64,000 nucleotides of DNA from Bacteroidota bacterium (GTDB lineage Bacteria > Bacteroidota > Bacteroidia > UKL13-3): assembly GCA_013298895.1 (NCBI GenBank), contig JAAFJM010000015.1, forward strand, positions 7,811 through 71,810, given 5' to 3'. Each line of letters opens with the position of its first letter. The first letter of the stretch is position 1. The notes beneath the pieces are model-generated. The model saw only the letters and a program-made list of their open reading frames with translations. It did not search any database and was not told where the DNA came from. Shown here piece after piece: positions 1 to 51,970 of the stretch. The translations under genes and the position numbers were made by a program.

Positions 1-895
1 TAGAGTAGTGTTACCATTTACATTTAAAGTTTCTCCAACTGTAATGGTTCCGTTATTGGTAGTAGTAGATTGATTATTTAAATTAAAATCGCCAGTGGTG
101 ATTAGAGTTCCATTATTAGTAACTGTTCCACCTGGAGAAAATGAATTACTAACAGTTACTGTTCCCCAATTTTGGAAAGACGAGCTAGAACCATTTAAAT
201 TCAAATTATTAAATGTAGCAGAACCTGTAGAAGTTACAATTAACGCACAACTATTATTAACTGATGCGTTTTGAACATTTACGTTGGTTCCACAAATTCT
301 GATTGTTCCACCGTTGCCGTTAAATCCAACTGTAATGTTACTACCAGTAATACAAACCACATCACCATTGTTAACGTTTAAGTTACTAGTGCTTGTAGTA
401 ATAGTTTGTGTGCAACCACTTGAACAATTTGGGCTACCAGTTTTACCTAATCCAGTTTTGCCAACTTGCGTTGTGTAACCTAAGGCAACTGTTACATTTT
501 TCGAATCTAAATCAATGTATTTGTTAATTTCTGAACCATCAGGCGATACTTTTGAAACAAACACACGTTTAATGGTATTTGATAAATTAATTTGTGATAC
601 AAATCCTGCATTTAAAGTAGCTGCCCCGCGAGCAATTAACTGTCCACCAGCTAAAGGATTTTCATCGTAAACAGATACAATATGTACGGCCTCTTGAAAA
701 CGAGTATCAGTAATATTGATTGTTAAATTTACATCTCTTGAGTTTTCCCAAGTAAAATTAGCAGGAACAACTAGGTCGTTCATATTGCTAACGTTATTGT
801 TTAAGTCAGGAGTATTTTCTTTAACAACATCTTTTGTACACGAACCTAAAAATAATAGGGTTAATGCTGTAATTGATAAAATTGTTTTTTTCATG
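1..895 (-). CDS. LruC-like lipoprotein, N-terminal part only (gene runs off the window start; ATG at 895..893)
   Basis: The reverse-strand frame is open from 895 to the window edge, so it is absent from the ORF track, which needs an in-window stop. The protein begins MKKTILSITALTLLFLGSC, a lipoprotein signal with lipobox Cys. Its N-terminal region (FTWENSRDVNLTINI...VSVYDENPLAGGQLIARGAATLNAGF) is clearly paralogous to the protein at 2229..3515. The plus-strand ORFs 284..478 and 716..916 are antisense artefacts. Confidence 0.5.
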
Positions 896-1223
896 ATTTT
901 TAGTTTTTCTTTTTAATTGTGTTCAATAATTGGGCTTAAATTGCAAAGTAATGATTTATAGGACTTTGGTTTTTAACATACTTCTGAACATGTATCAATA
1001 TGGGACATTTTTTCTCAAAATAGTACCTTAACATTTTGTTTAGGTCTGAAAAAGATTCAGTTAGAATAGGTGAAACAATCATTCAATAATTGAAAAATAG
1101 TTCAATTTCTTTATTTATTTCTGAAATTTCGAATTGAGTTTTTTTATAAACATAAGAAAAATCGGAGCAAAAAAGGTTGAACAACTCATATTTATTAATA
1201 ATTTGCGGCCTCATTTATTTTAC

Positions 1224-2087
1224 ATGGCATCAGGCATTTTTGCAATTTTAGACGATATAGCAACTTTAATGGACGATGTGGCTTTAACAGCTAAAGTAGC
1301 CACCAAAAAAACAGCGGGTATTCTTGGAGATGACTTGGCTGTAAACGCTGAAAAATCGACAGGTTTTGTTTCATCGCGAGAGATTCCAGTACTTTGGGCA
1401 ATTACCAGAGGTTCATTTATTAATAAATTAATTATAGTACCAATAGCCTTGGTTTTAAATTTGTTTTTACCAGAAGCTATTAAAGTAATACTTCTTTTAG
1501 GTGGATTTTATCTGGCATTTGAAGGAGTTGAAAAAATGATTGAATATTTTTTTCATAAAAACCAAGTATCTGAAAATACGGCTACAGAGCCTGTAAACGA
1601 TGAGTTAGATTTAGAGAAAGTAAAAATAAAATCAGCCATTACCACCGATTTTATACTTTCGGTAGAAATTGTAATTATAGCATTAAGTACAGTTTTAGAC
1701 CAAAATATTACCATTCAAATATTAACTGTTTCAGTTGTTTCTATAATAGCTACAATTGGAGTTTATGGACTTGTTGGTTTGATTGTAAGAATGGATGATG
1801 TGGGATATAGTTTAATAAAAAAGTCAAATCAAAAAGGAATATTAAATTCTGTAGGTACTATTTTAGTTAAAACATTACCTCTTGTTATCAAATTTTTTGC
1901 AGTAGTTGGGACTATTGCTTTAATTTTGGTTTCAGGTGGAATTTTTGCGCATAATATTGATTATTTGCATCATGTTTTACCTCAATGGTCTGGTTTGCTT
2001 AAAGAATTATGTTATGGCATTGTTGGTGGATTTATTGCATTATTATTGGTTCACATTGCCAAATTAGTTATTCGTTTAATTAAATAG
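1224..2087 (+). CDS. DUF808 family inner-membrane protein (YedI-like)
   Basis: I trimmed ORF 1134..2087 to the ATG at 1224 (MASGIFAILDDIATLMDDVALTAKVA...), which is the typical DUF808/YedI N-terminus. The protein has several hydrophobic segments. Confidence 0.6.
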   Translation: MASGIFAILDDIATLMDDVALTAKVATKKTAGILGDDLAVNAEKSTGFVSSREIPVLWAITRGSFINKLIIVPIALVLNLFLPEAIKVILLLGGFYLAFEGVEKMIEYFFHKNQVSENTATEPVNDELDLEKVKIKSAITTDFILSVEIVIIALSTVLDQNITIQILTVSVVSIIATIGVYGLVGLIVRMDDVGYSLIKKSNQKGILNSVGTILVKTLPLVIKFFAVVGTIALILVSGGIFAHNIDYLHHVLPQWSGLLKELCYGIVGGFIALLLVHIAKLVIRLIK

Positions 2088-2228
2088 TTGGCCAATACGA
2101 AGAAAAAAACTATTTCAATTTTACAACTTTATTATCTTGAACTGTTATCCATAAAATTACGTACAGATGATAGCAGTTTAACCTTGAGTTTTATGAAATT
2201 TTTATACCCAATTTTTTATATTGAAAAA

Positions 2229-3515
2229 CTAAGGTTTTATAAAAATTTTATCGTTATTTCTATAACCACTTTTGTTTAAATACCAATCGTTGCTTTGCAC
2301 TCCACACGATTGTACCCAATCGTTAAACTTCAAATAAGCCTCGTTTATTTTACTTTTTTCTTTTGGATAATTAAATGGAACAGGAATATTTAGAGCCCAA
2401 GGCATTTCGTTGGTTTTTGATACATAATACCTACCAAAGGTTAAGCTTGAATTATCTAAATGGGTTCCAAATAAATTTACATTGGCTAAATTAGTTGGTA
2501 AATTATTGGGCAAATGTACCTCATAACCTCTACCAAAACCATTGGTATTATTCCAAATAAATGGATTATAAGCACTCAAACCAAAATCGGCTAACAGAGG
2601 ACCATTTATTACATTAAAACTCACATGGTAATTAATAGAATCAGAAATACCTTGAGTAGAGACTGTATTGTAAGTTTCCATTTCGTTACGCATATTGTTA
2701 AATAAAATAATAACTGCTTTGTTTTGACCACTTTCTAGCCCTGCTCCCGAAAGTTCGTTAACTTGACTTCTGCTTATTGGAAACTCAACACCAAAACCGT
2801 TTTTAAACGAACCTCCGGTTGCCAATAATGTATAATTTGCTAAAACTTGTACTACTTTGTTGTTAGCATTGGTTACAATATTGTATTTATAACTTACAAC
2901 CACATCGTTCATGTCATAATCGCCTAGTGTTGGCCATAAATCTTCAAAAGCCAAAGTAGCTTTGCTATTTTCAAAAGGATAGTAGTTATTATATGCTTTG
3001 GTTGAATCGTGTGGATATTGATCAACAGAGTCAGGCACCAAATCATTATCAGAATCTATTTGAGGAGGAATGATGTTTTCAGTTTTACCTAAACTAGCAT
3101 TGGCATTGTTAAATTTAACCGTTATCATGGTTTTGTTTAAAGCCACTTCTTGGTTATAAATTCCTACTCCAGGAACTATTTCTTGTATAAAAACTTTATC
3201 GTAAATATTGGCTAACGAAAACTGTGTTTCAAAATTATTAGTAGCCGAAGCAGTTCCGCTTGTAATCAGCTTTCCGCCCAATTTAGGATTTTGGGTGTAT
3301 ACAGCAATAACATGCTTTTCTGTATTAGTTTTAAATGCAGTAATGCCCACATTTAACTTTACAGTTTTTGAATTCTCCCAACCAAAATTAATAGGTGGAA
3401 CGCCAAAACCTCCATTACTAGTGGTTCCATCTTTAGGCATCAGTTTTGGCTCCTTTAAACATGATATGGCAAAACCAATTACAATAACAGATAAAATTGT
3501 CTTTAATAGTTTCAT
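2229..3515 (-). CDS. LruC domain-containing lipoprotein
   Basis: The likely start is the internal Met (MKLLKTILSVIVIGFAISC, a lipoprotein signal). The protein has a DSDNDLVPD...EDLWPTLGDYDMNDVVV block and the FNVINGPLLADFGLSAYNPFIW region typical of LruC-domain proteins. It is paralogous to the partial gene at 1..895. Confidence 0.6.
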   Translation of the reverse strand: MKLLKTILSVIVIGFAISCLKEPKLMPKDGTTSNGGFGVPPINFGWENSKTVKLNVGITAFKTNTEKHVIAVYTQNPKLGGKLITSGTASATNNFETQFSLANIYDKVFIQEIVPGVGIYNQEVALNKTMITVKFNNANASLGKTENIIPPQIDSDNDLVPDSVDQYPHDSTKAYNNYYPFENSKATLAFEDLWPTLGDYDMNDVVVSYKYNIVTNANNKVVQVLANYTLLATGGSFKNGFGVEFPISRSQVNELSGAGLESGQNKAVIILFNNMRNEMETYNTVSTQGISDSINYHVSFNVINGPLLADFGLSAYNPFIWNNTNGFGRGYEVHLPNNLPTNLANVNLFGTHLDNSSLTFGRYYVSKTNEMPWALNIPVPFNYPKEKSKINEAYLKFNDWVQSCGVQSNDWYLNKSGYRNNDKIFIKP

Positions 3516-3842
3516 AGTTACAAAACTCAAAGCATATACTATTCCACAATATACAAACAACTATTTTACAGTATATTATAAAAATAAAATTCTTCAAAAT
3601 AGGCTCAAAATGGGATTTAAACCACCAAATTAAGCCTAGCTTGTAATTATTTTATATTATATATCAATTTGCTTAAAATGGTAAAATGCAGTTAAAAGTA
3701 AGCTCTAAAACAGCAGTATTTATTGACCTTGAGAGCCTTATTTAAATTTAGTCTAAATACTTGCTTTTGATTTTAATCAGCTACACCTTTACTCACGCTT
3801 CGGTTACATTCGCAGTCATAAATAAATTTACAATAAATAAAA

Positions 3843-4619
3843 ATGAATTGGATTACTAAAATGTTTAGCTCTTCGCTAGGTCAAAAATTAATCATGGCAC
3901 TTACAGGATTGTTCTTATGCTCATTCTTGATAATACACATGGTAGGAAATTTACAGCTATTTAAACACGATGCTGGATTAGCTTTTAATAAATATGCAGT
4001 ATTTATGACAACAAATCCTTTAATCAAAACCACCTCGTATTTATTATATGCCGCTATTTTGTTTCATGCATTTAAAGGTATTGCTTTGGTTTTCCAGAAC
4101 AAAAAAGCACGTCCAGTTAAGTACCAAGCTTTCGATGGAAAAGCCAATAGCCATTGGAGCAGCCGCAATATGGGTGTTTTAGGAACTATTATTTTAGTTT
4201 TTGTGGTAGTACACATGAGTAATTTTTGGGCAGAATACAAGTTTGGTCATGTGCCTTACACTCGTTATACCGAAAATATTCAAACTGGCGAAATTCAGTC
4301 TGATTACATGCCTGCAGATTTTACCATGAACTCAAAAATGGAAGAGCAAAGCGAAGGTTTAATGAAAGTAACTATTGTAAAAGACTTATTCCGCTCAGTG
4401 GAATTAGGATTTAAAGAATTATGGTTAGTAGCATTATACATTATAGCTATGGCTGCATTATCGTTTCATTTATACCATGGTTTTAAATCGGCTTTCCAAA
4501 CTATGGGTTTAAATCATAAAAAATATAATGGTGCTATAAACTTTATTGGAATTGGCGTGTTTGCTATATTAATTCCAATTGGATTTGCAGCAATGCCACT
4601 TTACTTTTTTATCAAATAA
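3843..4619 (+). CDS. sdhC: succinate dehydrogenase/fumarate reductase cytochrome b membrane subunit (Bacteroidota type)
   Basis: A 258-aa polytopic membrane protein with conserved His residues, sitting immediately upstream of the flavoprotein and iron-sulfur subunits. Confidence 0.75.
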   Translation: MNWITKMFSSSLGQKLIMALTGLFLCSFLIIHMVGNLQLFKHDAGLAFNKYAVFMTTNPLIKTTSYLLYAAILFHAFKGIALVFQNKKARPVKYQAFDGKANSHWSSRNMGVLGTIILVFVVVHMSNFWAEYKFGHVPYTRYTENIQTGEIQSDYMPADFTMNSKMEEQSEGLMKVTIVKDLFRSVELGFKELWLVALYIIAMAALSFHLYHGFKSAFQTMGLNHKKYNGAINFIGIGVFAILIPIGFAAMPLYFFIK

Positions 4620-4653
4620 TTAAATAAACATTTACCGTTAATAATATATAAAG

Positions 4654-6651
4654 ATGTTAGATTCAAAAATTCCTCAAGGCCCAATAGAATCAAAATGGAC
4701 AAAGTACAAATCTACAGTTCCATTGGTAAATCCTGCTAACAAACGTAGTTTAGAAATTATAGTTGTTGGAACAGGTTTGGCAGGGGCTTCGGCTGCTGCT
4801 ACACTAGCCGAGTTAGGTTATAAAGTTAAATCTTTTTGTTTTCAAGATTCTCCTCGTAGAGCGCACTCAATTGCTGCACAAGGAGGTATAAATGCTGCTA
4901 AAAATTATCAAAATGATGGTGACTCAGTTTACCGTTTATTTTATGATACAATTAAAGGTGGTGATTACCGTGCGCGCGAAGCAAACGTTCATCGTTTAGC
5001 TGAAGTAAGTGGTAATATTATTGACCAATCAGTTGCTAGTGGTGTACCTTTTGCTCGCGAATATGGAGGGTTATTAAGTAACCGTTCGTTTGGTGGAACA
5101 CAAGTGCAACGTACTTTTTATGCTGCTGGTCAAACGGGTCAACAGTTATTATTAGGTGCATACTCAGGTTTACAACGCCAAGTTGGTTTAGGTAACGTAC
5201 GTTTATACTCACGCCACGAAATGTTAGATGTGGTTAATATTGATGGCAAATGCCGCGGTATTATAGCTCGCGATTTGGTTTCGGGTAAGTTAGAGCGCCA
5301 CTTTGGACATGCAGTATTGTTATGTACTGGTGGATACGGTAACGTATTTTTCCTTTCAACCAATGCAATGGGAAGTAACGTAACTGCAGCTTGGAAAGCA
5401 CATAAAAAAGGTGCATTCTTTGGCAATCCTTGTTATACTCAAATTCACCCAACTTGTATTCCTGTTTCGGGCGATCACCAATCAAAATTAACTTTGATGA
5501 GTGAATCATTACGTAACGATGGTCGTATTTGGGTTCCAAAACGCAAAGAAGATGCAGCTGCTATTCGCGAAGGAAAATTAAATCCTAACGATTTAAAAGA
5601 AGAAGATAGAGATTATTACTTAGAAAGACGTTATCCTGCGTTTGGTAATTTAGTACCTCGCGATGTGGCTTCACGTGCTGCTAAAGAGCGTTGCGATGCT
5701 GGTTTTGGTGTGAATAAAACAGGCGAAGCTGTTTATTTAGATTTTGCTTTTAACATGAAGTATAAATATGGTAAACAAGTAGCTACTTTAAAACATATTA
5801 CTGACCCAACCGAAGAGCAATTAACTGCATTTGGCCACGAAGTAATTAAAGAAAAATATGGTAATTTATTTGACATGTACAAACAAATTACCGGTGTTGA
5901 TCCTTACAAAAACCCAATGATGATTTACCCTGCGGTACATTACACCATGGGTGGTTTATGGGTTGATTATAACTTAATGACAACCGTTCCTGGTTTATAC
6001 GCTTTAGGTGAAGCTAATTTCTCTGACCACGGTGCTAACCGTTTAGGAGCGTCGGCTTTAATGCAAGGTTTGGCTGATGGTTATTTTGTAATTCCTTATA
6101 CTATTGGTGCTTATTTAGCTAACGAAATCAGTGTAAAACCTATTTCTACAGACCATGAAGCTTTTGTAAAAGCAGAAAACGAAGTTAGCGATAGATTGAA
6201 CAAATTATTAGCTATTAAGGGAACCAAACCAGTTGATTATTTCCACAAACGTTTAGGTAAAATTATGTGGGATAAATGTGGTATGGCTCGTAATGTAGAA
6301 GGTTTAACTTGGGCTATTTCTGAAATTCAAAAAATTAGAGAAGAGTTTTGGAAAGATGTGCGTGTACCGGGCGATGCTAATGAGTTTAATCCTGAATTAG
6401 AAAAAGCTGGTCGTGTAGCAGATTTTATTGAATTAGGCGAACTAATGTGTAAAGATGCTTTAGAGCGTAACGAAAGCTGTGGAGGTCACTTCCGCGAAGA
6501 TTACCAAACTGAAGAAGGTGAAGCATTGCGCGATGATGAAAACTTCAAACATGTAGCTGCTTGGCAGTTCAACGAAGTTGGTAATTGGACTCTAAACAAA
6601 GAAGATTTAGTTTACGAAAACATAAAAATTGCGCAACGTAGCTATAAATAA
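4654..6651 (+). CDS. sdhA: succinate dehydrogenase/fumarate reductase flavoprotein subunit
   Basis: It has the FAD-binding [18 protein letters not shown] motif, an HSIAAQGG site around the covalent-FAD His, and an overall SdhA/FrdA layout at 665 aa. Confidence 0.9.
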
Positions 6652-6728
6652 AAGTTAATAAGTTAAAAGGTTAGCAGTTTATTTAGTTAAACCAATAACC
6701 ATATAATCAACCAATAAAATTAAATAAA

Positions 6729-11304: not shown

Positions 11305-12654
11305 ATGAGTAATTTAAAAGAAAACACAAAGCCTGTAAAAGGTAATTTTTTTTCAGATTTGTTTAATTATTTTTATAAAAGTCCTAAAGACTTTACGAAA
11401 AAACAGTGGACAGTTATCAGTGTTTGGATATTGATTAATATTGTTTGCTTAGTGCTTTATATGGCTGCAGGTGCCTCATTTGGTTTGGCATTGCTTAATT
11501 GCCTTTATGGAATACTCATTATTTTTGGATATTTCACCCGACTTATTGCTTTGATTTTAGCTCCTATTTTTATCCTGATTTTTAAAATTGTTGGATTGGT
11601 ATTTAAACAAGAAAATGAAATTCAAACAGCTTACGAATGGAGTGATGCGTTGATATTTGCTACCATAGCAGCCACTATTATCCGCGGATATTTTATGGAA
11701 GCATATACCATTCCTACCTCATCTATGGAAAAATCGTTATTGGTTGGTGATTTTCTTTTTGTAAGTAAATACAGTTATGGTAATAGGTTGCCTCAAACAC
11801 CATTGAGTTTTCCTTTTGTTCATAATAAATTGCCTTTTACCGATAATCAAGTACAATCGTATTTAGAATGGATGAAAATGCCGTACACCAGATTATTTGC
11901 CATATCTACCATTAAAAACAATGATGTAGTAGTATTCAATTATCCATTTGAAATTGATAAACCAACCGATAAAAAGGAAAATTATATTAAACGTTGTGTG
12001 GGTATAGCAGGCGATAGTTTAAAAGTGGTTAATCAGCAATTATTTGTAAATAATAAACCAGCAGATAATCCAGCATTGATGCAACACTTTTATAAGGTTA
12101 CCACTACCGAAGGCATTAGTGAAAAGTTTATTAAAGACAATGATATTACTGAAGGTGGTGCTACCGATAAAGGTTATTTATTAATTAACTTAACTAATCC
12201 TGCTAAAGAAAAATTGAAAAATTCTCCAGGGGTAGTTTCAATAGAAAGGAATGATACCCAATATATCAGTAATTACACTTCCTTTCAAGAAAAATTCAAG
12301 TGGAGTATTGATGATTTTGGACCTATTTACATTCCAAAACAAGGTGATGTAGTTGAAATGAACGAACATAACTACGACATATACGAATTTGCTATTAAGC
12401 ATTATGAAAACAACCCAACATTTACTTGGGAAAATGGACAAGCCATGCTAGACGGAAAAGCGGTAAAAACATATCAATTTAAGTATAATTATTACTTTAT
12501 GATGGGCGATAACCGCGATAATTCAGCCGACAGCCGCTTTTGGGGTTTTGTGCCTGAAACACATATTGTAGGTAAAGCACTTTTTGTTTGGATGAGCTGG
12601 GATTCAGGAAACAGTGCAGTAAGATGGAAACGTTTATTTAAATCAATTAAATAA
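11305..12654 (+). CDS. lepB: signal peptidase I
   Basis: It has the catalytic Ser (IPTSSMEKSLLVGDFLFVSK), the GDNRDNSADSRFWGFVP box and N-terminal TM helices. Confidence 0.8.
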   Translation: MSNLKENTKPVKGNFFSDLFNYFYKSPKDFTKKQWTVISVWILINIVCLVLYMAAGASFGLALLNCLYGILIIFGYFTRLIALILAPIFILIFKIVGLVFKQENEIQTAYEWSDALIFATIAATIIRGYFMEAYTIPTSSMEKSLLVGDFLFVSKYSYGNRLPQTPLSFPFVHNKLPFTDNQVQSYLEWMKMPYTRLFAISTIKNNDVVVFNYPFEIDKPTDKKENYIKRCVGIAGDSLKVVNQQLFVNNKPADNPALMQHFYKVTTTEGISEKFIKDNDITEGGATDKGYLLINLTNPAKEKLKNSPGVVSIERNDTQYISNYTSFQEKFKWSIDDFGPIYIPKQGDVVEMNEHNYDIYEFAIKHYENNPTFTWENGQAMLDGKAVKTYQFKYNYYFMMGDNRDNSADSRFWGFVPETHIVGKALFVWMSWDSGNSAVRWKRLFKSIK

Positions 12655-12686
12655 AATGAACTGCAGTTTGTAAAACTGATTTAACT

Positions 12687-13514
12687 ATGAATCATATTCC
12701 AACCTTTAACTTTCGAAATATCGGTCGTAAAGAAAAGTTAGTAGATGTATTACCATGGGATTATTCTAATTTTTACCAAACTGAAAAAGTACATTGCCAC
12801 GATTACCATGAATTATTTGTAATTACAAGTGGTTCAGGAGTTCATCAAATAGATGGAGTAGAATATGCTATTCAATCCAATTCATTTCATATAGTTCCTA
12901 ATTTTTTCTCTCATAAATTTCAGCGCGAGCAAGGAACTATAGGTTTTACCATTGCCATTCAAAGTATTTTTATAGAACAGCTCTGTAATTTTGATAAAGT
13001 ATCAAATTATATAGCACTTTTTGAAAAAGAACACCTAATTGACCTTGGTTCAATTGATTTTAATAGCTTTCATTTTTTTGTGAATGAAATTCAAAACCAA
13101 GGTATAAACGATGCTTATATGCAAAATATTTGCGCAGCCATTTTACTCAAAATTATTGCGTTCATAAAGACAGATTCAGTTATTGAAAATAACTTTTCGA
13201 GTTTAGTTAGAAAAACTTTATTGCGCAATTACAAAAAGAGGTTATCGAATGAACAGTATGCCGATATGTTCAGCATGACGGCTATTAGCTTTAATTTGAA
13301 GGTTAAAAAAGCAACAGGTAAAACGATGATACAAATGCAAAATGAACTGCTTATATCAAACATAAAAAGGTTACTGTTCAATACCGATGCTAATTTAAAA
13401 GAAATTGCCTTCGATTTTGGTTTTAGTGATTATGCCCACTTTTCAAATTTTTTCAAAAAACATACTGGCAGTTCGCCCATGAATTTTAAAAAAGAAATCC
13501 AAAACATACAATAA
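12687..13514 (+). CDS. AraC-family transcriptional regulator (cupin-like N-terminal domain + C-terminal AraC HTH)
   Basis: The C-terminal HTH region has the AraC pattern FNLKVKKATGKTMIQMQNELLISNIKRLLFNTDANLKEIAFDFGFSDYAHFSNFFKKHTG. It lies directly upstream of the haem-motif operon. Confidence 0.7.
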   Translation: MNHIPTFNFRNIGRKEKLVDVLPWDYSNFYQTEKVHCHDYHELFVITSGSGVHQIDGVEYAIQSNSFHIVPNFFSHKFQREQGTIGFTIAIQSIFIEQLCNFDKVSNYIALFEKEHLIDLGSIDFNSFHFFVNEIQNQGINDAYMQNICAAILLKIIAFIKTDSVIENNFSSLVRKTLLRNYKKRLSNEQYADMFSMTAISFNLKVKKATGKTMIQMQNELLISNIKRLLFNTDANLKEIAFDFGFSDYAHFSNFFKKHTGSSPMNFKKEIQNIQ

Positions 13515-44598: not shown

Positions 44599-45606
44599 AT
44601 GCTAACAATGAAACCCAAAATCTTGCTTATTCTTTTATTTTTAAATCTAACTTCTTTTGCACAAATAAGCTATTTATTAAACATAGATTCAATTCCTAAA
44701 ACGCCCAATTTACCGCAACACCTAGTCTTGTATTATAAAAATGCCAATGAAGCCAAATGGCTTTTTTACAATAAAAAATACAAAGAAGCCATCGTAAAAT
44801 ATAAAACCGCCTTTGAAATAGCCAAGCCACAAGCGCAGCATATTGGCGATTTGATGCAATGCTATTTTGAGTCAAATCAAAAAGACTCTGCCGTAAAATA
44901 TGCCGAATTTTGTATAAAAAACTTTGGACTTGATGTATATAGAATGGTAAAAGATTCGAGTATTAATAGCTTTTATAGTTTAGAGATTTTCAAAAAACCT
45001 TTGTCAGAATTTTATGCCAAAGATAATACTATTAGGAAAGTGATTATGATTGAACATTACTTACACAATGACCATTTTTTTAGATCAGAGTTTGCTAATT
45101 TTAACTTGGGAAATGAAGTAAAAAACAAAGATGAATTTGCTTTTAAAATAGCACTACAATATGATAGTATTTATGCAATTCCATACATTACAAATTTGAT
45201 TAAAGAATTCAACTTTCCAAATGAATACGATATTGGTTATTACTCAGTCAAAAATATAATGTTTTTGTTGCGCCATTATAATATTGAAAGAGATGTTTAC
45301 GATAGCGCACTTTATAACGGAAAAACGTTGCCTGAAGATTATGCTAGCTTAACAGATTATAAGTTCAATACGGACTGGGAAGCCTTAATAAAAGAAAACA
45401 AGTTTAGACCAAAAAATAATTATGGTCCAAATTTGAAAGAAATAAATAACAAAATGGTAGTTGGTGAATTAGATGATATTGAAAATGTAGATAAAAGACG
45501 AGAAGCCATTGGATTAATGCCTTTGTGGCAATATGCCAAATACAAAAAATTTGAATTGTCGGATGCTTATAAAAATGTTCTCAAAAAACAAAAAATTAAA
45601 TACTAA
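44599..45606 (+). CDS. hypothetical secreted protein, tandem paralog 1
   Basis: Signal peptide MKPKILLILLFLNLTSFAQ. The C-terminal block KRREAIGLMPLWQY is shared with paralog 2 (KRRSEIGLMTIEEQ). I do not recognise the family. Confidence 0.5.
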   Translation: MLTMKPKILLILLFLNLTSFAQISYLLNIDSIPKTPNLPQHLVLYYKNANEAKWLFYNKKYKEAIVKYKTAFEIAKPQAQHIGDLMQCYFESNQKDSAVKYAEFCIKNFGLDVYRMVKDSSINSFYSLEIFKKPLSEFYAKDNTIRKVIMIEHYLHNDHFFRSEFANFNLGNEVKNKDEFAFKIALQYDSIYAIPYITNLIKEFNFPNEYDIGYYSVKNIMFLLRHYNIERDVYDSALYNGKTLPEDYASLTDYKFNTDWEALIKENKFRPKNNYGPNLKEINNKMVVGELDDIENVDKRREAIGLMPLWQYAKYKKFELSDAYKNVLKKQKIKY

Positions 45607-45612
45607 ACAACT

Positions 45613-46617
45613 ATGAAACACAAACTTCTTTTAAAATTCAGCATTGCCTTTTGCCTATTTTTTGCAATTGCGCAGCAAGCATTCAGCCAAACCCAAAAAT
45701 CTTATTTGGGATATTACAGCTTAATCAATGAAGCTGAAATGTTAACCTTTGAAAACAAAAACGAACAAGCTTTACAAAAATATTTGGAAGCCTTTAAACA
45801 ATATGATGGCTTTGAAGAAGATTATTTAAAGGCAGTGAAATTGGCTTTGAAACAAACTAATGCTGAAATAACTTTTAATTTATTAAAAGAAAAAGCACAA
45901 AAAACAGGTTGGTTTACCGATGAATTATTTGATAAAAATAAAATAGATAGTTTTACACAAACTAAAATGGGAAAACTATATTTAAAAAATAAAGAAAATT
46001 GGTTTGAACAAAATAAAAAAGCATATGATTTGTATGCTTATGGTTTAACAAAATCAATAGATGCAATAGACCAATTTGTTAGAACTAATTTCTTAAGAAC
46101 TAGTAAAAATAACTTCATAAATGATAGTTTGAAAAATGTAACATTTTATAATATTCTGAACGAAACGGATAATAAAAACTTTGCAAGATTCAAAGATTTT
46201 GTTTCAAATTATGGGTTCCCAGGAAAAAGTAAATTAGGTGGTAAGACCTTACATATAAGTACATTTATTACACATGTTTTTAAATACAGTGATATTTTAG
46301 ATAGCAATTGTTCTCAGTTTGATAAAGACAAGTTTTACTATTTAGATTCTTTGTTGAAAATTCAAATAATTAAAGGTGAATACAGATGTAATGATTTTGC
46401 ATATTGCTACGACTATTCATTAGGAAATGACAGCATTTCATATTATGCTTATCCTAGATATACTTTTAGTGAATCAGGTAAAAGAGTATTAATCAATTTT
46501 CCTGTTATTGACCCCAAAAACCTAAACAAACGAAGATCAGAAATTGGCCTAATGACTATAGAAGAACAATGTAAAATATATGGCGTTCCATTGCCACCAA
46601 ATTATAAATCAATTTAA
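45613..46617 (+). CDS. hypothetical secreted protein, tandem paralog 2
   Basis: Signal peptide MKHKLLLKFSIAFCLFFAIAQQAFSQ. It starts 6 bp after paralog 1 and has similar length and C-terminal block. Confidence 0.5.
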   Translation: MKHKLLLKFSIAFCLFFAIAQQAFSQTQKSYLGYYSLINEAEMLTFENKNEQALQKYLEAFKQYDGFEEDYLKAVKLALKQTNAEITFNLLKEKAQKTGWFTDELFDKNKIDSFTQTKMGKLYLKNKENWFEQNKKAYDLYAYGLTKSIDAIDQFVRTNFLRTSKNNFINDSLKNVTFYNILNETDNKNFARFKDFVSNYGFPGKSKLGGKTLHISTFITHVFKYSDILDSNCSQFDKDKFYYLDSLLKIQIIKGEYRCNDFAYCYDYSLGNDSISYYAYPRYTFSESGKRVLINFPVIDPKNLNKRRSEIGLMTIEEQCKIYGVPLPPNYKSI

Positions 46618-46744: not shown

Positions 46745-46848
46745 TTCCACAGGTTAATCTAGCAAGCTTTCGGGAAGTGGCAATTTATATTTAGTTCTTG
46801 GTTGTTCCTTGTTCATGTTTATGCCAAGCAGCACCAATAAGAATTTTT
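46745..46848. repeat. Dispersed repeat family members (TTCCACAGGYTAAT...AAGCTTTCGGGAAG...GTGGCAAT and AAGCAGCACCAATAAGAATTTT)
   Basis: Related copies occur at 48011..48032, 48050..48087, 48106..48153 and 51257..51280. Confidence 0.55.
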
Positions 46849-47013: not shown

Positions 47014-47889
47014 ATGAAAAAACAATTTCTTTTACTAACCATGGTTAGTTTGCTTTTTAGTTCGTGTGCAGTAGTGCTTCAAGATGAAATAGGTGTAAAA
47101 AGAACCTTAGGAAGAGTTAATGAAAAAATTCACTACCCAGGAGCAGTTGTTTACAATCCATTTTTATCAAGAGTAATAAAAGTTCCAATTAGAACTATCA
47201 ATTTAGCCATAAACGCTTCCCTTCCAAGCAAAGAAGGTTTAACCATTCAATCTGAAATATCCATTTTATATAAAATAAAAACATCTGAATTACCCAATAT
47301 TTTAAAAAATACCGGATTAAACTTTCAGGATGTAGTAATACTTCCTGTATTTAGGTCGGCAGCGGCAGATATATGCGCCAAATACGAAGCCAAAGATATG
47401 CATAGCAATAAGCGCAGTGTTATTGAAAAAGAAATTAAAGAACGTATGATGGAAGTAGCCGAATCTAAAGGATTTATTATTGAATCGGTGTTAATGAAAA
47501 GCATTAGTTTACCTCCCGGATTAGCCAAAACCATTGAAGAAAAAATGCAATCGGAACAAGAAGCACAAAGAATGGAATTTTTAAAAGAACGCGAAAAACG
47601 TGAAGCTGAAAGAAAAATATTACAAGCCGAAGGCGAAAAACAAAGTAGAATTATAGCAGCCGAAGCTCAAAAAAGAATCATAGAAATAGAGGCTGAAGGT
47701 AAAGCAAATGCACTAAAAACAGAAGCGGAAGCACAAATGAAAGCCAACCAAATGTTAAATAGCAGCTTAACTCCGCAGGTGTTAAAAGCAAAACAAATTG
47801 AAGCTTTTAAATCGCTTTCGGGTTCAAATAATGCCAAAGTTATTATTACCGATGGTAAAACGCCATTAATTGGTATTCCTGAAAATTAG
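47014..47889 (+). CDS. SPFH/band-7 (prohibitin-family) lipoprotein
   Basis: Lipoprotein signal MKKQFLLLTMVSLLFSSC, an SPFH-like core, and a C-terminal coiled-coil rich in E/K/A/Q. Confidence 0.65.
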   Translation: MKKQFLLLTMVSLLFSSCAVVLQDEIGVKRTLGRVNEKIHYPGAVVYNPFLSRVIKVPIRTINLAINASLPSKEGLTIQSEISILYKIKTSELPNILKNTGLNFQDVVILPVFRSAAADICAKYEAKDMHSNKRSVIEKEIKERMMEVAESKGFIIESVLMKSISLPPGLAKTIEEKMQSEQEAQRMEFLKEREKREAERKILQAEGEKQSRIIAAEAQKRIIEIEAEGKANALKTEAEAQMKANQMLNSSLTPQVLKAKQIEAFKSLSGSNNAKVIITDGKTPLIGIPEN

Positions 47890-47917
47890 GTACTAGCTTT
47901 TTAATTTAATAGGCAAT

Positions 47918-47962
47918 AAAACAGCACTTACCAATATTTTATGGTAAGTGCTGTTTTTTTTG
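47918..47962 (+). terminator. Strong Rho-independent terminator
   Basis: AACAGCACTTACC ...loop... GGTAAGTGCTGTT followed by TTTTTTTGA. Confidence 0.75.
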
Positions 47963-47984: not shown

Positions 47985-48153
47985 ATCTCGCCATTATTGG
48001 CATTTAAGCAATGCAGCACCAATAATAATTTTAAACATACTTTACACCCTAGCTAATGCCGAAAGTTTTCGGGAAGGGGCAGTGGATAAAATGGAATATT
48101 TTTTTTTCCACAGGCTAATTCCGAAAGCTTATCAGAACATGTGGCAATTCATC
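47985..48153. repeat. Cluster of dispersed-repeat copies, including GCAGCACCAATAATAATT within an 8-bp inverted repeat ATTATTGG/CCAATAAT
   Basis: See 46745..46848. There are two tandem diverged copies of the TTCCACAGG...GTGGCAAT unit here. Confidence 0.5.
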
Positions 48154-48459
48154 TTTAATGCTGAGCTTATTACAAGGCATTATTCATCAATACCTAATTC
48201 GGAAATGCTGGATTTTAGCTGGCTCAATTTCCCTATAAAATTAAACTTGCTTTAATAAACCTAATTGATATTTTTGTTTTGTAAGAAAGCTAAACTATTA
48301 AAGAGCTAATAGACCAATTATCAGCAGGCAGAAAGCTTAGAAACCTGCGGAGAAGAAGTAATAATTTTAGGAGTAAAAAGTAATAGCTGTTGGTGACGCT
48401 TTGCTAGAGAACAACAGAGAGGTAAAAAATAAAATATTCATTAACTTTGTGAAATAAAT

Positions 48460-49992
48460 TTGAAAAAAGAAATGGACGATGTATTATTATTAGCTGACAA
48501 AGTAAGAAATACTCTAATTCTTGGTGAAAGCCATTTTAGAGAATTTAAATCCGCTTTGGAAGGACGACCTGACAATAAAAAGCCTGGATTAGTAAAACAT
48601 ATATGTGCTTATATTGGAGAGGCATTAGTTTCGTTTGCAAATGCAGATGGTGGTGCGGTATTAATTGGAGTAGAAGATGATGGAACCATTTCTGGAATTC
48701 CACATACTGAAGAAGATATACAAACTATGCTCAATTCTATTCATACACATATTTATCAAAATCAACAACTTCCATTAAATAATGCTAATAAACTTATTTT
48801 AGAAGGCAAAACAATTTTATATTTTTCGGTAAATAAAGGAACAACGATGATATATCAACTTCCAGACGGAAGATGTGTAAGACGAAAAGACAAATCAACT
48901 ATGCCTGCTTCTGTTGACCAAATTCAGTTTGAAAGACAAGAAGTTAAATCAAGAGAATATGATAGTCAATTTGTAGATGGAGCAATGGTAACAGATTTAG
49001 ATGTTAGATTGCTTCAAGGTATTGCAGACCAATATATTAAAGGATTAAGCATAGAAAGGTATTTACAACAAATTGGGCTTGCAGAATATGCTCAAAATGG
49101 TTTAAGACTAAAACGAGCAGCTTTATTACTTTTTGCAACAGACATCGACAGATGGCATCCACGAAGCCAAGTAAGGTTTCTAAAGGTAAAAGGTAATACT
49201 TTAGAAGCTGGAGAAAAGTACAATGTTGTAAGCGATGATACAGTAAAAGGAAATATATTTGATTTGGTAATTAAATCGTGGGAACATTTACGTTCATATT
49301 TAGCCTATAAAACAGAATTTGGAACCAATTCTCAATTTGAACAAAAGTATATTTACCCAGAAGATGCTGTTCGTGAAGCCATTTTAAATGCAATTGCACA
49401 TAGAGATTATAGTATTGCAAATGCAATTGAAATTTATATTTTCAATGACAGAATGGAAATAAAAAGTCCGGGAGCATTGATTTCAACTCTAACTGTCAAA
49501 AATTTATATGAACTAGAAGGTTCTCACGAATCAAGAAATTCACTTATAGCAAGAGTTTTGAGAGAAAATAAATTAATGAGGGAGCTTGGAGAAGGAATGA
49601 AAAGGATTTTTGGTTTGATGCAAGAGCAAGAACTTGAAAAACCTGAATTATATTCTAATGGACTTTGGTTTCGAGTTACTTTATCGAATAAAACTATATT
49701 TAGCTCTAAAGAATTAGAATGGCTTCAACAATTTGAAAAATTTGATTTAACAAAAAACCAAAAACAAATTATTTTATTAGGACTTGGCGACAAAGAAATT
49801 TCCAGTAATGATATTTTTAAGGCATTAAATATTAAAAATACTGAAACCGAAAAGTTTACACAAGAAGTTACTGTATTAAGAAATTATGGTATTCTTGAAA
49901 GTTTTGTTACTTCGGCAGAAGCACAGAAAATTAGTCGTAAAACAAAAAAGAATAGAAAAGATATACCAAGATATAAAGTGAAAGTGCCGTAA
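48460..49992 (+). CDS. Schlafen-like AlbA_2 (putative DNA-binding) + HATPase_c_4 (RecG-C-terminal-like wHTH) protein
   Basis: N-terminal ESHFREFKSALE...KHICAYIGEALVSFANADGGAVLIGVEDDGTISGI is AlbA_2-like. Central VREAILNAIAHRDYSIANAIEIYIFNDRMEIKSPGAL is HATPase_c_4-like. The ATG at 48472 may be the true start. Confidence 0.55.
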   Translation: MKKEMDDVLLLADKVRNTLILGESHFREFKSALEGRPDNKKPGLVKHICAYIGEALVSFANADGGAVLIGVEDDGTISGIPHTEEDIQTMLNSIHTHIYQNQQLPLNNANKLILEGKTILYFSVNKGTTMIYQLPDGRCVRRKDKSTMPASVDQIQFERQEVKSREYDSQFVDGAMVTDLDVRLLQGIADQYIKGLSIERYLQQIGLAEYAQNGLRLKRAALLLFATDIDRWHPRSQVRFLKVKGNTLEAGEKYNVVSDDTVKGNIFDLVIKSWEHLRSYLAYKTEFGTNSQFEQKYIYPEDAVREAILNAIAHRDYSIANAIEIYIFNDRMEIKSPGALISTLTVKNLYELEGSHESRNSLIARVLRENKLMRELGEGMKRIFGLMQEQELEKPELYSNGLWFRVTLSNKTIFSSKELEWLQQFEKFDLTKNQKQIILLGLGDKEISSNDIFKALNIKNTETEKFTQEVTVLRNYGILESFVTSAEAQKISRKTKKNRKDIPRYKVKVP

Positions 49993-50212
49993 AACTCCAA
50001 AATAATGAATATTGTCTTAGGTTAACTATTTGACTCAGAAACTGGCTTTAAACATAGTTAGTTTATGGGTTAACCATTGCTGAATCCTACAAATCTAAAC
50101 CAACAGGATCTTTAATTTTTCGAAATTATTAATTTAGGCTCAAACAAGTGAAATTAAAAAATTATCCAATAATTCATTACACCTTTATTCATTCAGAAAA
50201 AGTAAAATTATT

Positions 50213-51229
50213 ATGACAGAAAACGAAAAGAAAAATATTCCAAGCAGTGGTAAAATTAATTCATTAGTTTATCTAACAGAAAGTAATTACAGGCAGCTAA
50301 TTGGGTGCTCAGATATAAAACATTATGATTTTGAAAATGCCATTTCATTATTTAAACAATTGTATGACAATTGGAAGTTTTATAAAATGTTTAACAAATA
50401 TGATATAAAATTTCTATTTAAAAATTTTATATTATTATCAGGTGAAAATGAAAATCTATTTTTTAAAGAAGTAGAAGATAGAAAAGATAATTTAGGATAT
50501 ATTTTAGAAATTAAAGGTAAGCTTAAGTATCATTTACACCCTTCTTGTGAAGGTTTAAATAGGGGTTTCAGAAATTTTTTCATGCCAGAACCAGTAGCCA
50601 AAATTCAAGATAAAGAAGAAAAAATAAAGGTAGCAAACGAGGTTAGGGATTGGTTTAAAACAAATAATTACACAATTGAAAGGTATTTAAACCAAGAAAT
50701 AAATGATAAGCACTTAACGGAATCATTTAATAGAGTATTCCCTAATAAATTTAATATTGAACCAATATCAATTAGTCAATCAGATCAAAATCAATTTAAG
50801 TGGTATATACAAAAAAAATCAGATACAATAAAAATTGAGAAAGAATTTAGTTTTCAAGAGTTTGAAAATAACGTAACAGCTATTATCTCAGATAGAAATG
50901 ACCTATGCCAACGTTCAATGAAATTGTATAATCTTAGCAAACACGACAATTTAATTAAAGAAAAAGATCATAATATTATGAGTATTCTAAATGAAAGGAT
51001 TGAAACTGGATATTTGAAAGACGTAACTATTGATTATATTGAAAATATGGGGTTAGATGATTTAAAAACCTTTTGGCAAAAGCATATAGATTTAAGAAAC
51101 AAAGGCATATTGGAATTTACAAATTTTTTAAAATGGAAGTTTAATATAAAAGAATACGGACTGATGAATATTAAATTGGAGAATTTCAACTTTGAATGTT
51201 GTACAATGTGTTTAATGAGCCAATCTTAA
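50213..51229 (+). CDS. hypothetical protein with no recognisable domain, strongly AT-rich and Lys/Asn-rich
   Basis: A 338-aa ORF with coding-like periodicity, a HPSCEGLNRGFRNFF segment, and a C-terminal CCTMCLMSQS. Confidence 0.45.
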   Translation: MTENEKKNIPSSGKINSLVYLTESNYRQLIGCSDIKHYDFENAISLFKQLYDNWKFYKMFNKYDIKFLFKNFILLSGENENLFFKEVEDRKDNLGYILEIKGKLKYHLHPSCEGLNRGFRNFFMPEPVAKIQDKEEKIKVANEVRDWFKTNNYTIERYLNQEINDKHLTESFNRVFPNKFNIEPISISQSDQNQFKWYIQKKSDTIKIEKEFSFQEFENNVTAIISDRNDLCQRSMKLYNLSKHDNLIKEKDHNIMSILNERIETGYLKDVTIDYIENMGLDDLKTFWQKHIDLRNKGILEFTNFLKWKFNIKEYGLMNIKLENFNFECCTMCLMSQS

Positions 51230-51293
51230 CTAAGTTGATAATTTCCTGTTTCACCAAAGCAGCACCAACAATAACTATTAATTATACCTCACA

Positions 51294-51336
51294 AAAAAAG
51301 CTATCTAGTTTTGAAACCTGATAGCTTTTTTTGCTT
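51294..51336. terminator. Bidirectional Rho-independent terminator
   Basis: AAAGCTATC ...loop... GATAGCTTT followed by TTTTTG, between the convergent 50213..51229 (+) and 51353..51970 (-). Confidence 0.65.
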
Positions 51337-51352
51337 TAAATCATGTGTTGTA

Positions 51353-51970
51353 TTATGCTTCGTATAATCCCAATGCATCTAATACGTTGTTTAGTTCTTC
51401 AAAATCTTTAAGGCCAGTTTTTTCTTCATCGCCTCCTATTATGTTTAAGGCATACGGTTGGTAAGTAGCCAATGTTTCTTTTATGTTTTCGGGTACTGTA
51501 TTATAACCCCAAACTATTTTGTTATTGGCACATATTTGTTTTAAATCGTCAGCACTTAAAGTATGGCCATTGCTTGAATATAAATGAAAAGCATCTACTT
51601 TATCGGTATATGCTTCAAAAATTTTATGAAGCGCAGTTACATCAAATAAACTGGTATCAATTTTTTTGATAATAGGCTTGTCTATTTCGGCTAAATCGGT
51701 TGGCAACAAATCGTTGTTTAGTTCTACAATATCAATGTTCAACATATCAACTATATCGGCCACTTCTTTCATAGTTTGGTTTCCAAACTCAGCCACTACA
51801 AAACATCCAGAAGTCCAATCGATAATTTCTTTGGCTTTAACTGGCGGAATATAACTTACACTTTGAGGGTCAAAACAAAAACCCATATAATCAATACCTG
51901 CTGCGGCTGCAAAGCGGGCATCGCTTAAGTTGGTAATATTACCCAACTTAATTTTTACGTTTTGATTCAT
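51353..51970 (-). CDS. phosphoribosylanthranilate isomerase-like (TrpF-like) TIM-barrel protein
   Basis: IKLGNITNLSDARFAAAAGIDYMGFCF resembles the PRAI N-terminus (K.CG.T...DA..A...GAD..GF.F). Length 205 aa. Confidence 0.4.
   Translation of the reverse strand: MNQNVKIKLGNITNLSDARFAAAAGIDYMGFCFDPQSVSYIPPVKAKEIIDWTSGCFVVAEFGNQTMKEVADIVDMLNIDIVELNNDLLPTDLAEIDKPIIKKIDTSLFDVTALHKIFEAYTDKVDAFHLYSSNGHTLSADDLKQICANNKIVWGYNTVPENIKETLATYQPYALNIIGGDEEKTGLKDFEELNNVLDALGLYEA

Follow-up and report, generated by a model that had tools for sequence, protein, structure and literature searches.

A Schlafen-ATPase gene and a gene of a rare family are probably chance neighbours in a Bacteroidota genome

Two adjacent genes on the forward strand of a Bacteroidota genome raise the question of whether adjacency here reflects a common function. 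They lie in a stretch of 64,000 nucleotides that was analysed as a whole (the window), and the initial annotation read them as an inserted sensor/effector, toxin/antitoxin or anti-phage pair. Gene A (48472..49992, +) encodes a Schlafen-ATPase, or “Schlatpase”, of 506 aa, as assigned from its Pfam domains, its catalytic triad and the alignment of its homologs. Gene B (50213..51229, +) encodes a protein of 338 aa from a rare and uncharacterised family, which was studied by homolog searches, alignment and a predicted structure. Both open reading frames are present on the plus strand where they had been placed (the start of A has since been revised), and the gap of 220 bp between them is likewise as described. 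In our analysis, A and B are most likely two independent single-gene defence candidates. Both genes have a defence flavour, but the idea of an anti-phage pair is not supported.

That both genes are accessory is evident from the genomes closest to this one. In four of these (L017-L020), the flanking proteins are 93-100% identical and the flanking DNA is 91-96% identical, and all four retain the FA-desaturase, pyruvate kinase, DUF2480 and trpF-like genes up to window position ~51247-51282. Past this boundary, L018, L019 and L020 carry different small genes and neither A nor B; the sequence of L017 stops ~0.5 kb beyond the trpF-like gene and fixes the boundary only. A and B are accessory, since at a conserved slot the nearest genomes have neither gene and hold other cargo instead. 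The resident boundaries around the two genes are at 48432 and ~51247. Base composition leads to the same conclusion, as the GC of each gene is constant whatever the GC of the host: homologs of A have GC 0.32-0.34 between host flanks of 0.335-0.45, and those of B have 0.23-0.265 against flanks of 0.28-0.35. The proposal of horizontal acquisition is thus supported. Gene B is markedly low in GC, as had been noted (0.252 vs 0.318 for the window and 0.31-0.36 for the flanking housekeeping genes). Gene A, at 0.311, is not deviant overall; its GC3 of 0.158 is the lowest among 18 genes measured.

The features that appeared to insulate and flank the pair are real, but the right-hand ones belong to the resident DNA. 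An 18-nt motif, GCAGCACCAAYAAKAAYT, makes up the dispersed repeat, with three copies in 64 kb (46828, 48013 and 51259, all +) versus 0.05 expected. The first (46818..46847, +; core GCAGCACCAATAAGAATT) is upstream of an SPFH gene, and the second (48003..48032, +), found by the same repeat search, is at the left edge of the long intergenic region upstream of A. The third (51249..51278, +) is at the right junction of the variable slot, and degenerate copies occupy the same place in relatives without A and B. It was therefore not imported with the genes, and its prior existence in those relatives excludes the motif as a target-site duplication. Both supposedly insulating terminators also exist. 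The left hairpin (47915..47960, +) has 19-nt arms that are 95% complementary, followed by a T-run, and terminates the SPFH/Band_7 gene (47014..47889). The right one (51292..51333) is a bidirectional terminator common to B (+) and the convergent trpF-like gene (51353..51970, -), with 20-nt arms that are 90% complementary, flanked by an A-run and a T-run. Since it is conserved in relatives without A and B, this hairpin is not part of any inserted module; it is the resident terminator of the trpF-like gene.

Also resident, and outside the imported DNA, is a conserved non-coding element of ~190 nt (48241..48428, +) that contains a Bacteroidota-type TAnnTTTG box (TATTTTTG). It is 80-95% identical in L018, L019 (two copies) and L020, where it lies upstream of unrelated small genes of 224, 152 and 197 aa. 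A structured RNA or riboswitch was considered and rejected, because the element matches no Rfam family, shows no covariation and has a fold z-score of +1.0. A widespread mobile promoter cassette was rejected as well, as two metagenome scans with conserved patterns were empty and the element was found only in L018-L020. No integrase, transposase or recombinase is present among the neighbouring genes, and there is no tRNA in the window; A and B together thus show no recombinase, no att sites or terminal repeats and no tRNA target that would mark an inserted mobile element. Nor is 21.6-51.2 kb one large island, for 21.6-46.8 kb consists of housekeeping genes (aroK, folP, cdaA, a DEAD helicase and others), the arrangement of which is a rearrangement relative to other genomes. 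A phage or plasmid origin of the genes was discounted too: tblastn found B in none of 50,697 phage genomes or 72,556 plasmids, and relatives of A in these collections are all below 33% identity.

Gene B was said to encode no recognisable motif or fold, and both family libraries and Foldseek bear this out. The protein has no family match in Pfam, NCBIfam, PHROGs or PADLOC; the PADLOC check that the initial annotation had suggested, against the PADLOC-DB v2 defence models, gave 0 families at E <= 1. A lone NCBIfam match to cas_csf4 (E = 0.005, 15 bits vs a cutoff of 400) is attributed to chance. Scanning 50 members of the family against the libraries at E <= 1 gave nothing, and a sequence search of the PDB with the B profile found nothing below E = 0.08. 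The family is small, with 17 close homologs in 5.8 billion proteins and 179 cluster representatives at E <= 1e-3 in 1.84 billion. Its members are ~300 aa long; in the longer ones, which are fusions, a domain scan detected only TPR and a weak DUF697. Across 50 sequences, down to ~20% identity, H107, C112, C330 and C333 are invariant, forming the pattern His-x4-Cys...Cys-x2-Cys. The predicted structure (pLDDT 91.9, pTM 0.83) is mostly alpha-helical and places these four residues at strand and helix ends typical of zinc knuckles. They may form a putative zinc site that would anchor the C-terminus on the central beta region. Foldseek searches with the model gave best E-values of 2.1 (PDB) and 0.62 (BFVD), and query TM-scores did not exceed 0.19. 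B lacks a recognisable catalytic motif. A PD-(D/E)xK reading of D92...E99-x-K101 was rejected, because E99 is not conserved (it is Pro in the homolog P0017) and both E99 and K101 are lost in the broader alignment.

Homologs of B occupy 17 loci in seven distinct contexts, none of which has an AlbA_2 gene. Their neighbours include a retron-type RT (2e-104), an NsnB/AriA/PtuA-like ATPase (5e-42), AbiGi (2e-30) and a DrmC-like PLD, and further HigB, RhuM, Imm32, a DUF4258 toxin-like gene and KilA-N. At one locus (L008), a homolog 57% identical to B begins 14 bp past the last gene of a retron-type RT/HisKin-conflict/iREC operon. The family thus recurs beside varied defence genes, an association that is qualitative (seven contexts, no background rate). 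B is probably a stand-alone factor in defence or an accessory to it, and would act by itself or with whichever system adjoins it. More specifically, and tentatively, B could be the founder of an undescribed single-gene anti-phage family, with proteins of ~300 aa that bear a His-Cys3 zinc site, adopt a fold lacking known relatives and serve alone or as an interchangeable terminal effector.

Another possibility, which we consider rather unlikely, is that B binds zinc as a structural or regulatory component of mobile elements (such as an integrative-element accessory or an anti-defence factor) and hitch-hikes in variable regions. The lack of a catalytic motif is compatible with such a role, as are the KilA-N and RhuM genes that adjoin B homologs. 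Further, the context of the distant member P0286 (many small unknown genes, a sigma factor, DNA methylases and a DUF2779 nuclease) looks like mobile-element cargo. However, B is missing from the phage and plasmid collections and has no structural match in BFVD, several of its contexts are classical defence loci, and no integrase or transposase adjoins it in the window. Its rarity, its confident fold prediction without any known fold or family, and its recurrence in defence loci make it a low-cost candidate for defence screening.

Gene A had been described as a 510-aa protein with a TTG start at 48460. The true start is almost certainly the ATG at 48472, judging from the lengths of full-length homologs (~504-517 aa, mostly 506), their alignability from the MDD start, and the conservation of DNA in more distant homologs, which begins at or just before this ATG. 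The claimed domain pair was confirmed by Pfam, and the searches did not reassign the protein. Residues 23-150 match SLFN_AlbA_2 (PF04326; E = 6.9e-17, 62.5 bits vs a cutoff of 25.3), and downstream, residues 322-408 match HATPase_c_4 (PF13749; E = 1.2e-22). The latter had been labelled a wHTH; in fact, PF13749 is a GHKL-type ATPase domain (bioRxiv 10.64898/2026.05.29.728809). The Schlafen triad, E-x4-E-x-K, is intact (ESHFREFK, preceded by G), comprising E23, E28 and K30 in the 510-aa frame, or E19, E24 and K26 in 506-aa numbering. The motif REAILNAIAHRDY is a candidate GHKL N-box (E...N) for ATP/Mg binding, the putative counterpart of RzAgo E314. These domains, the intact triad, the published definition of the architecture and a partial match to the PADLOC pAgo model identify A, at the level of sequence, as a stand-alone Schlatpase.

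The relatives of A suggest a gene that travels alone. Copies are 96% identical in another Bacteroidota MAG and 85% and 77% identical in non-Bacteroidota contexts. With identities of 75-96% across phyla, the clade, as far as its sequences tell, is a remarkably conserved group of stand-alone Schlatpases. The eight A-homolog loci (L009-L016) represent four distinct contexts, with A solitary and its neighbours different throughout; no flanks are common to A and its homologs at the loci compared. DNA homology to L009 delimits the imported unit as 48431..49994, and homology to the closest relative (96% identical) stops at 49994, 2 nt past the stop codon. The C-terminal tail of ~100 aa is optional, being missing from short forms of ~410 aa that are 88-95% identical and have the same N-terminus as the full-length homologs. 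The 407-aa compact core variant would be a convenient subject for study. By analogy, A is probably an ATP-switched tRNA nuclease, under a mechanism carried over from fusion proteins to the stand-alone protein: the Schlafen nuclease would cut tRNA, and the cleavage would halt translation, resulting in abortive infection.

Could A instead be a DNA-binding regulator of its neighbours or of a DNA-damage response, as the older COG-type AlbA_2/HATPase_c_4/HTH annotation implies, with B as unrelated cargo? We find this improbable. An HTH reportedly forms the end of most proteins with this architecture, a regulator could be solitary in every context, as A is, and sources label the homologs only “ATP-binding protein”, “RecG-like” or “putative DNA binding domain-containing”. 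However, residues 405-510 of A have no Pfam match even at E <= 10, with no HTH detected, and it is this same tail that the close short forms lack. The catalytic triad is intact, the unrelated neighbours leave no conserved target, and a mobile defence gene accounts better than a host regulator for high identity across phyla and for a GC that does not follow the host.

It is the linkage of A to B that finds no support. The two homolog families never adjoin in other loci: B occurs in 0 of 8 A-homolog loci and A in 0 of 17 B-homolog loci, a small sample of four A contexts and seven B contexts from the co-occurrence comparison that had been suggested. By the refuting condition that the initial annotation itself had set, the reading as a two-gene module is thus not supported, and the two are not conserved neighbours across genomes in the manner of a two-gene operon. 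Arcicella sp. LKC2W has both genes on separate contigs, 5 for A (90% identical) and 14 for B (58% identical). The DNA homology of A ends before the spacer (49993..50212, +) and before B. Zero co-occurrence, the unlinked genes of LKC2W and the confinement of A homology to 48431-49994 together argue that A and B are independent. The spacer has no homology to any locus compared; it contains no terminator-like hairpin and no meaningful ORF, and no small ORF in the spacers was credible. As neighbours that share a strand and have no intervening terminator, the genes may be co-transcribed, and may interact locally, in this genome.

A genuine but recently combined two-gene system, one protein sensing and the other executing, is very improbable: the genes share a strand and the same resident boundaries, only 220 bp apart without an intervening hairpin, and defence modules do shuffle (a Schlatpase was exchanged among pAgo, NACHT and RM systems), but the 25 other loci show no co-occurrence, LKC2W keeps the genes unlinked, the A unit of the closest relative ends at 49994, and 220 bp is long for a coupled operon. 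We therefore favour, as the probable reading, that A and B are unrelated, independently mobile single-gene accessory loci that became chance neighbours in a hypervariable slot, making a two-gene “mini defence island” and not a system. The slot is bounded by the SPFH and trpF-like genes of a low-GC freshwater Bacteroidota genome. On this reading the pairing is fortuitous, and the pair as such is thus of little importance. The locus is nevertheless a clean negative example, in which adjacency, terminators and flanking repeats mimic a module though the “insulating” features are resident.

Among known systems, B resembles single-gene Abi-type and defence-island proteins by genomic context only, and no system is closest to it. 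Gene A can be compared more closely. In the case of SLFN-pAgo (RzAgo of Runella zeae), A matches the PADLOC pAgo model contiguously over its N-terminal Schlatpase portion only (positions 50-446 of 1121, 1.8e-32). A likely has ATP-driven oligomerisation and tRNA cleavage in common with SLFN-pAgo, by analogy. However, SLFN-pAgo proteins are 1,071-1,187 aa long and carry a C-terminal Argonaute core (PAZ, MID, PIWI), whereas A has 506 aa and no such core, and so is not an SLFN-pAgo. A thus has no guide-dependent sensor, and its activation must differ.

The nuclease domain and the E-(D/E)-K arrangement are also those of Cash (CRISPR-associated Schlafen; PMC13462974) and of mammalian SLFN11/13, the antiviral output of which is tRNA cleavage. 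The triad of CbCash is E17/D22/K24 (PMC13462974), equated with that of A by motif pattern and not by structural superposition. Cash is switched by cA4 via a Csx15 sensor, and mammalian SLFNs use an SF1 helicase/ATPase, whereas the ATPase of A is of the GHKL type; A was not seen beside a CRISPR locus. The only solved structure detectable by sequence from A is the very distant PDB 3LMM, an uncharacterised AlbA_2/HATPase_c_4 protein without assigned function, which matches the GHKL region (296-383; E = 1.1e-4).

A is also like the stand-alone Schlatpases. Architectures of this type have historically been annotated “transcriptional regulator”. The Schlatpase supradomain is defined as SLFN_AlbA_2 (PF04326) with a GHKL ATPase (PF13749), to which a C-terminal HTH is often added, and the combination is reported in 60,692 of 103,533 prokaryotic SLFN proteins (bioRxiv 10.64898/2026.05.29.728809). 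Structure-based annotation reportedly finds a C-terminal HTH in >90% of the tails of these proteins; the tail of A has no HTH match in Pfam, and the clade of A is unusually conserved (75-96% identity across Bacteroidota and non-Bacteroidota contexts). Like them, A carries the two domains in that order, the usual size of ~500 aa and an intact triad. Its clade thus belongs to a class of proteins that is abundant and that now has a mechanistic model.

The slot between the SPFH gene and the convergent trpF-like gene holds two plus-strand genes, gene A (48460..49992 as first annotated) and gene B (50213..51229, 338 aa). Both are present where the initial annotation placed them, and its observation was correct in all material respects. 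A and B are horizontally acquired, as it proposed: the closest genomes carry other cargo in the slot, and A and B each hold their own GC content regardless of host. They are not, however, the paired module that it envisaged. A and B are best described as a two-gene mini defence island in a hypervariable slot, which each of them reached independently.

Eighty related loci were fetched via the neighbouring DUF2480 protein. In the four closest genomes (L017-L020), flanking proteins are 93-100% identical and flanking DNA 91-96%, and the genes for the FA-desaturase, pyruvate kinase, DUF2480 and the trpF-like protein are kept in all four. The slot cargo is a 224-aa secreted protein in L018 and L020, followed in L020 by two further small genes and then the same SPFH gene (98% identical); in L019, it comprises 197-aa and 152-aa genes. 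L017 stops ~0.5 kb beyond the trpF-like gene, and thus fixes the right boundary only. Homology between these genomes and the window ends at 51247-51282, directly 3' of the B stop codon, and on the left 48032-48432 is homologous to non-coding DNA of L018-L020. Because resident homology reaches 48432 on the left and resumes from 51247 on the right, the imported DNA spans about 48432-51246. No tRNA, integrase or transposase lies near A and B in this neighbourhood of the window. The homologs of A have a GC content of 0.32-0.34 (flanks, 0.335-0.45) and those of B 0.23-0.265 (flanks, 0.28-0.35). The low GC noted for B is borne out (0.252 vs. 31.8% for the window); the GC of A is 0.311, but its GC3 (0.158) is the lowest among 18 genes measured.

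A and B had also been thought to be insulated by terminators and flanked by dispersed repeats. The hairpins (47915-47960 and 51292-51333, the latter terminating the convergent trpF-like gene) are real, as is the repeat, an 18-nt motif, GCAGCACCAAYAAKAAYT, with three copies in 64 kb against 0.05 expected. All are on the plus strand (46828-46845, 48013-48030 and 51259-51276) and sit at borders of the SPFH/A+B slot; the motif may mark a site of recombination or act as a regulatory box. The right-hand hairpin and the motif copy at 51259 (the latter in degenerate form), however, occur in relatives lacking A and B, and are therefore resident features rather than insulation carried in with the genes. 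Degenerate copies are also concentrated in the variable segment of L018-L021.

The pairing of A and B had been made contingent on B lying beside homologs of A in other genomes; checked across the loci of A and B homologs, it does not. In tblastn searches of all 106 fetched loci, the two genes occurred together only in the source genome itself. Arcicella sp. LKC2W has both, unlinked, on contigs 5 and 14. Relatives of A number in the thousands, the best 120 matches being 71-100% identical. The eight A loci fetched represent four contexts. The identity of the copy is 96% in another Bacteroidota MAG (L009), 90% in Arcicella sp. LKC2W (L010), 85% where it adjoins chemotaxis, FIST and H+-PPase genes (L011-L014), and 77% on contigs that bear the label Sulfuricurvum sp. 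(L015, L016). A is solitary in every locus, and its neighbours are different. Since DNA homology to L009 is confined to 48431-49994, ending two bases beyond the A stop codon, and more distant copies share the coding sequence alone, the spacer and B arrived apart from A.

Within the A clade (P0018-P0137; L009-L016), proteins are 75-96% identical among Bacteroidota MAGs, Arcicella and Flavobacterium, and the clade extends to contigs labelled Arenicella and Sulfuricurvum and to the chemotaxis-gene context. No carrier element is visible, because the shared DNA stops precisely at either end of the gene. Such strong conservation is remarkable in a naked, horizontally moving gene.

A non-coding element of ~190 nt recurs in the slot (window 48241-48428; L018 12051-12262; L019 11979-12155 and 12925-13212; L020 11995-12395). 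Its copies are 80-95% identical to each other, and each precedes, by 40-100 nt, one of four unrelated genes, namely A and those for the 224-, 152- and 197-aa small proteins. A TAnnTTTG box of the Bacteroidota type lies within the element, as does a degenerate copy of GCAGCACCAAYAAKAAYT in inverted orientation; the element looks like a retained promoter/leader beneath which cargo genes are swapped. It had no Rfam match, no covariation and no hits in two metagenome scans. Adjoining the L018 copy, in the variable segment, is a tandem array (12290-12695) with a ~42-nt period and periodic 'GGTFRVSGKPESLF' ORF translations in two frames.

The stretch at ~21.6-46.8 kb (~21637-46849) is absent between the M1 peptidase and trpF-like genes in L018, L021, L022 and L026. 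We rejected it as an island; it holds housekeeping genes (aroK, folP, cdaA, a DEAD helicase and a PorX-like PglZ response regulator), and the difference from these genomes is a rearrangement. In the same relatives (and in L020), 0.1-4 kb separates the M1-peptidase/FabI block (window 19.0-21.6 kb) from the trpF-like gene. In the window, ~25 kb of housekeeping genes has therefore been translocated into the junction, and the slot is both a cargo hotspot and a breakpoint of rearrangement. Immediately left of the SPFH gene, a tandem pair of equal-sized genes (44599-45606 and 45613-46617) encodes secreted proteins of ~335 aa in which TPR signals are weak; short repeats near their ends (44460-44502/46620-46662 and 45494-45552/46650-46708; 81-88% identical) suggest a local duplication. 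The sole above-threshold Rfam family in the window is a Flavo-1 RNA (RF01705; 60788-60873, minus strand; 55.9 bits vs. a gathering score of 42). The window's nearest relatives are freshwater Bacteroidota metagenome-assembled genomes.

Gene B is an orphan. In agreement with the initial annotation, it has no significant match in Pfam, PADLOC, PHROGs or NCBIfam, and only 17 relatives were found in 5.8 billion proteins. When 1.84 billion cluster representatives were searched with a profile, 179 matched at E <= 1e-3 and 79 at E <= 1e-10, mostly of 300-340 aa. Neither the 50,697 phage genomes nor the 72,556 plasmids searched contained a homolog, the PDB contained no relative by sequence, and no Pfam family was common to any subset of 50 family members. 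A 50-sequence alignment reaching down to ~20% identity has five invariant columns (H107, C112, L322, C330 and C333), and D92, Y106, P125, R145, W147, F148 and N173 are almost invariant. H-x4-C and C-x2-C plausibly form a putative His-Cys3 zinc site that would bring the central beta region and the C-terminus together; no catalytic motif was found in B. AlphaFold2, from the deeper alignment, predicts a mainly helical protein (pLDDT 91.9, pTM 0.83), and Foldseek matched this model to no fold among 350,542 PDB chains (best E = 2.1, query TM <= 0.19) or in BFVD (best E = 0.62).

The 17 B loci fetched fall in seven contexts. The B homolog is followed by AbiGi (2e-30), with DUF3644 and Imm32 close by (L003-L006), or by a PLD/DrmC-like gene (L097); it has a HigB toxin pair upstream in L002 and RhuM downstream in L098, and the distant member P0286 adjoins a DUF4258 toxin-like gene and DNA methylases (L099-L106). 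The L007 member, P0016 (4233-5870), comes after a WYL regulator, an NsnB/AriA/PtuA-like ATPase (5e-42) and a 307-aa partner; ~200 aa that match no Pfam family extend its C-terminus. In L008, the homolog begins 14 bp past the last gene of an operon that includes a retron-type reverse transcriptase (PADLOC 2e-104). The apparent five-gene operon (837-6700) reads reverse transcriptase, HisKin-conflict kinase, 230-aa protein, iREC-REC and B homolog, with a KilA-N gene after it; in none of the other contexts does a B-family gene look operonic. The neighbour that B has in the window is A, a Schlatpase. These neighbourhoods are variable and defence-rich, with no constant partner, as would be expected if B were a stand-alone defence gene or an accessory factor. 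The defence flavour first ascribed to A and B is supported. This family may merit an experimental look; of all the elements here, it alone could prove to be new biology.

Gene A belongs to a known and recently characterised kind. Both domains first assigned to it were recovered, SLFN_AlbA_2 at residues 23-150 (6.9e-17) and HATPase_c_4 at residues 322-408 (1.2e-22). It matches PHROG 12156 (6.6e-70), and the PADLOC pAgo model in its N-terminal part alone (profile positions 50-446 of 1121, 1.8e-32). Its start is almost certainly the ATG at 48472 rather than the TTG at 48460, since conservation in more distant homologs sets in at or slightly before that ATG. Full-length homologs have ~504-517 aa (mostly 506) and begin MDD...; short forms of ~410 aa (409-440) share this N-terminus. 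The C-terminal 100 residues, which have no Pfam match, are missing from 88-95%-identical short forms, and for this reason the 407-aa core is the conserved unit.

The combination PF04326+PF13749 has been named the "Schlatpase" supradomain, and occurs in 60,692 of 103,533 prokaryotic Schlafen proteins, most Schlatpases being small and stand-alone, as a rule with an HTH at the C-terminus; the Schlafen nuclease, once reconstituted, cuts tRNA, leading to abortive infection (2026 preprint, bioRxiv 10.64898/2026.05.29.728809). Given this mechanism, the Schlafen-triad pattern ESHFREFK and a GHKL-like box, REAILNAIAHRDY, in its sequence, A is likely an ATP-switched tRNA nuclease that would be active on oligomerisation. 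A Schlatpase beside a hypothetical protein would, on neither count, surprise a specialist. The triad pattern of A is also common to CbCash, a CRISPR-associated Schlafen in which it is formed by E17-D22-K24 (PMC13462974).
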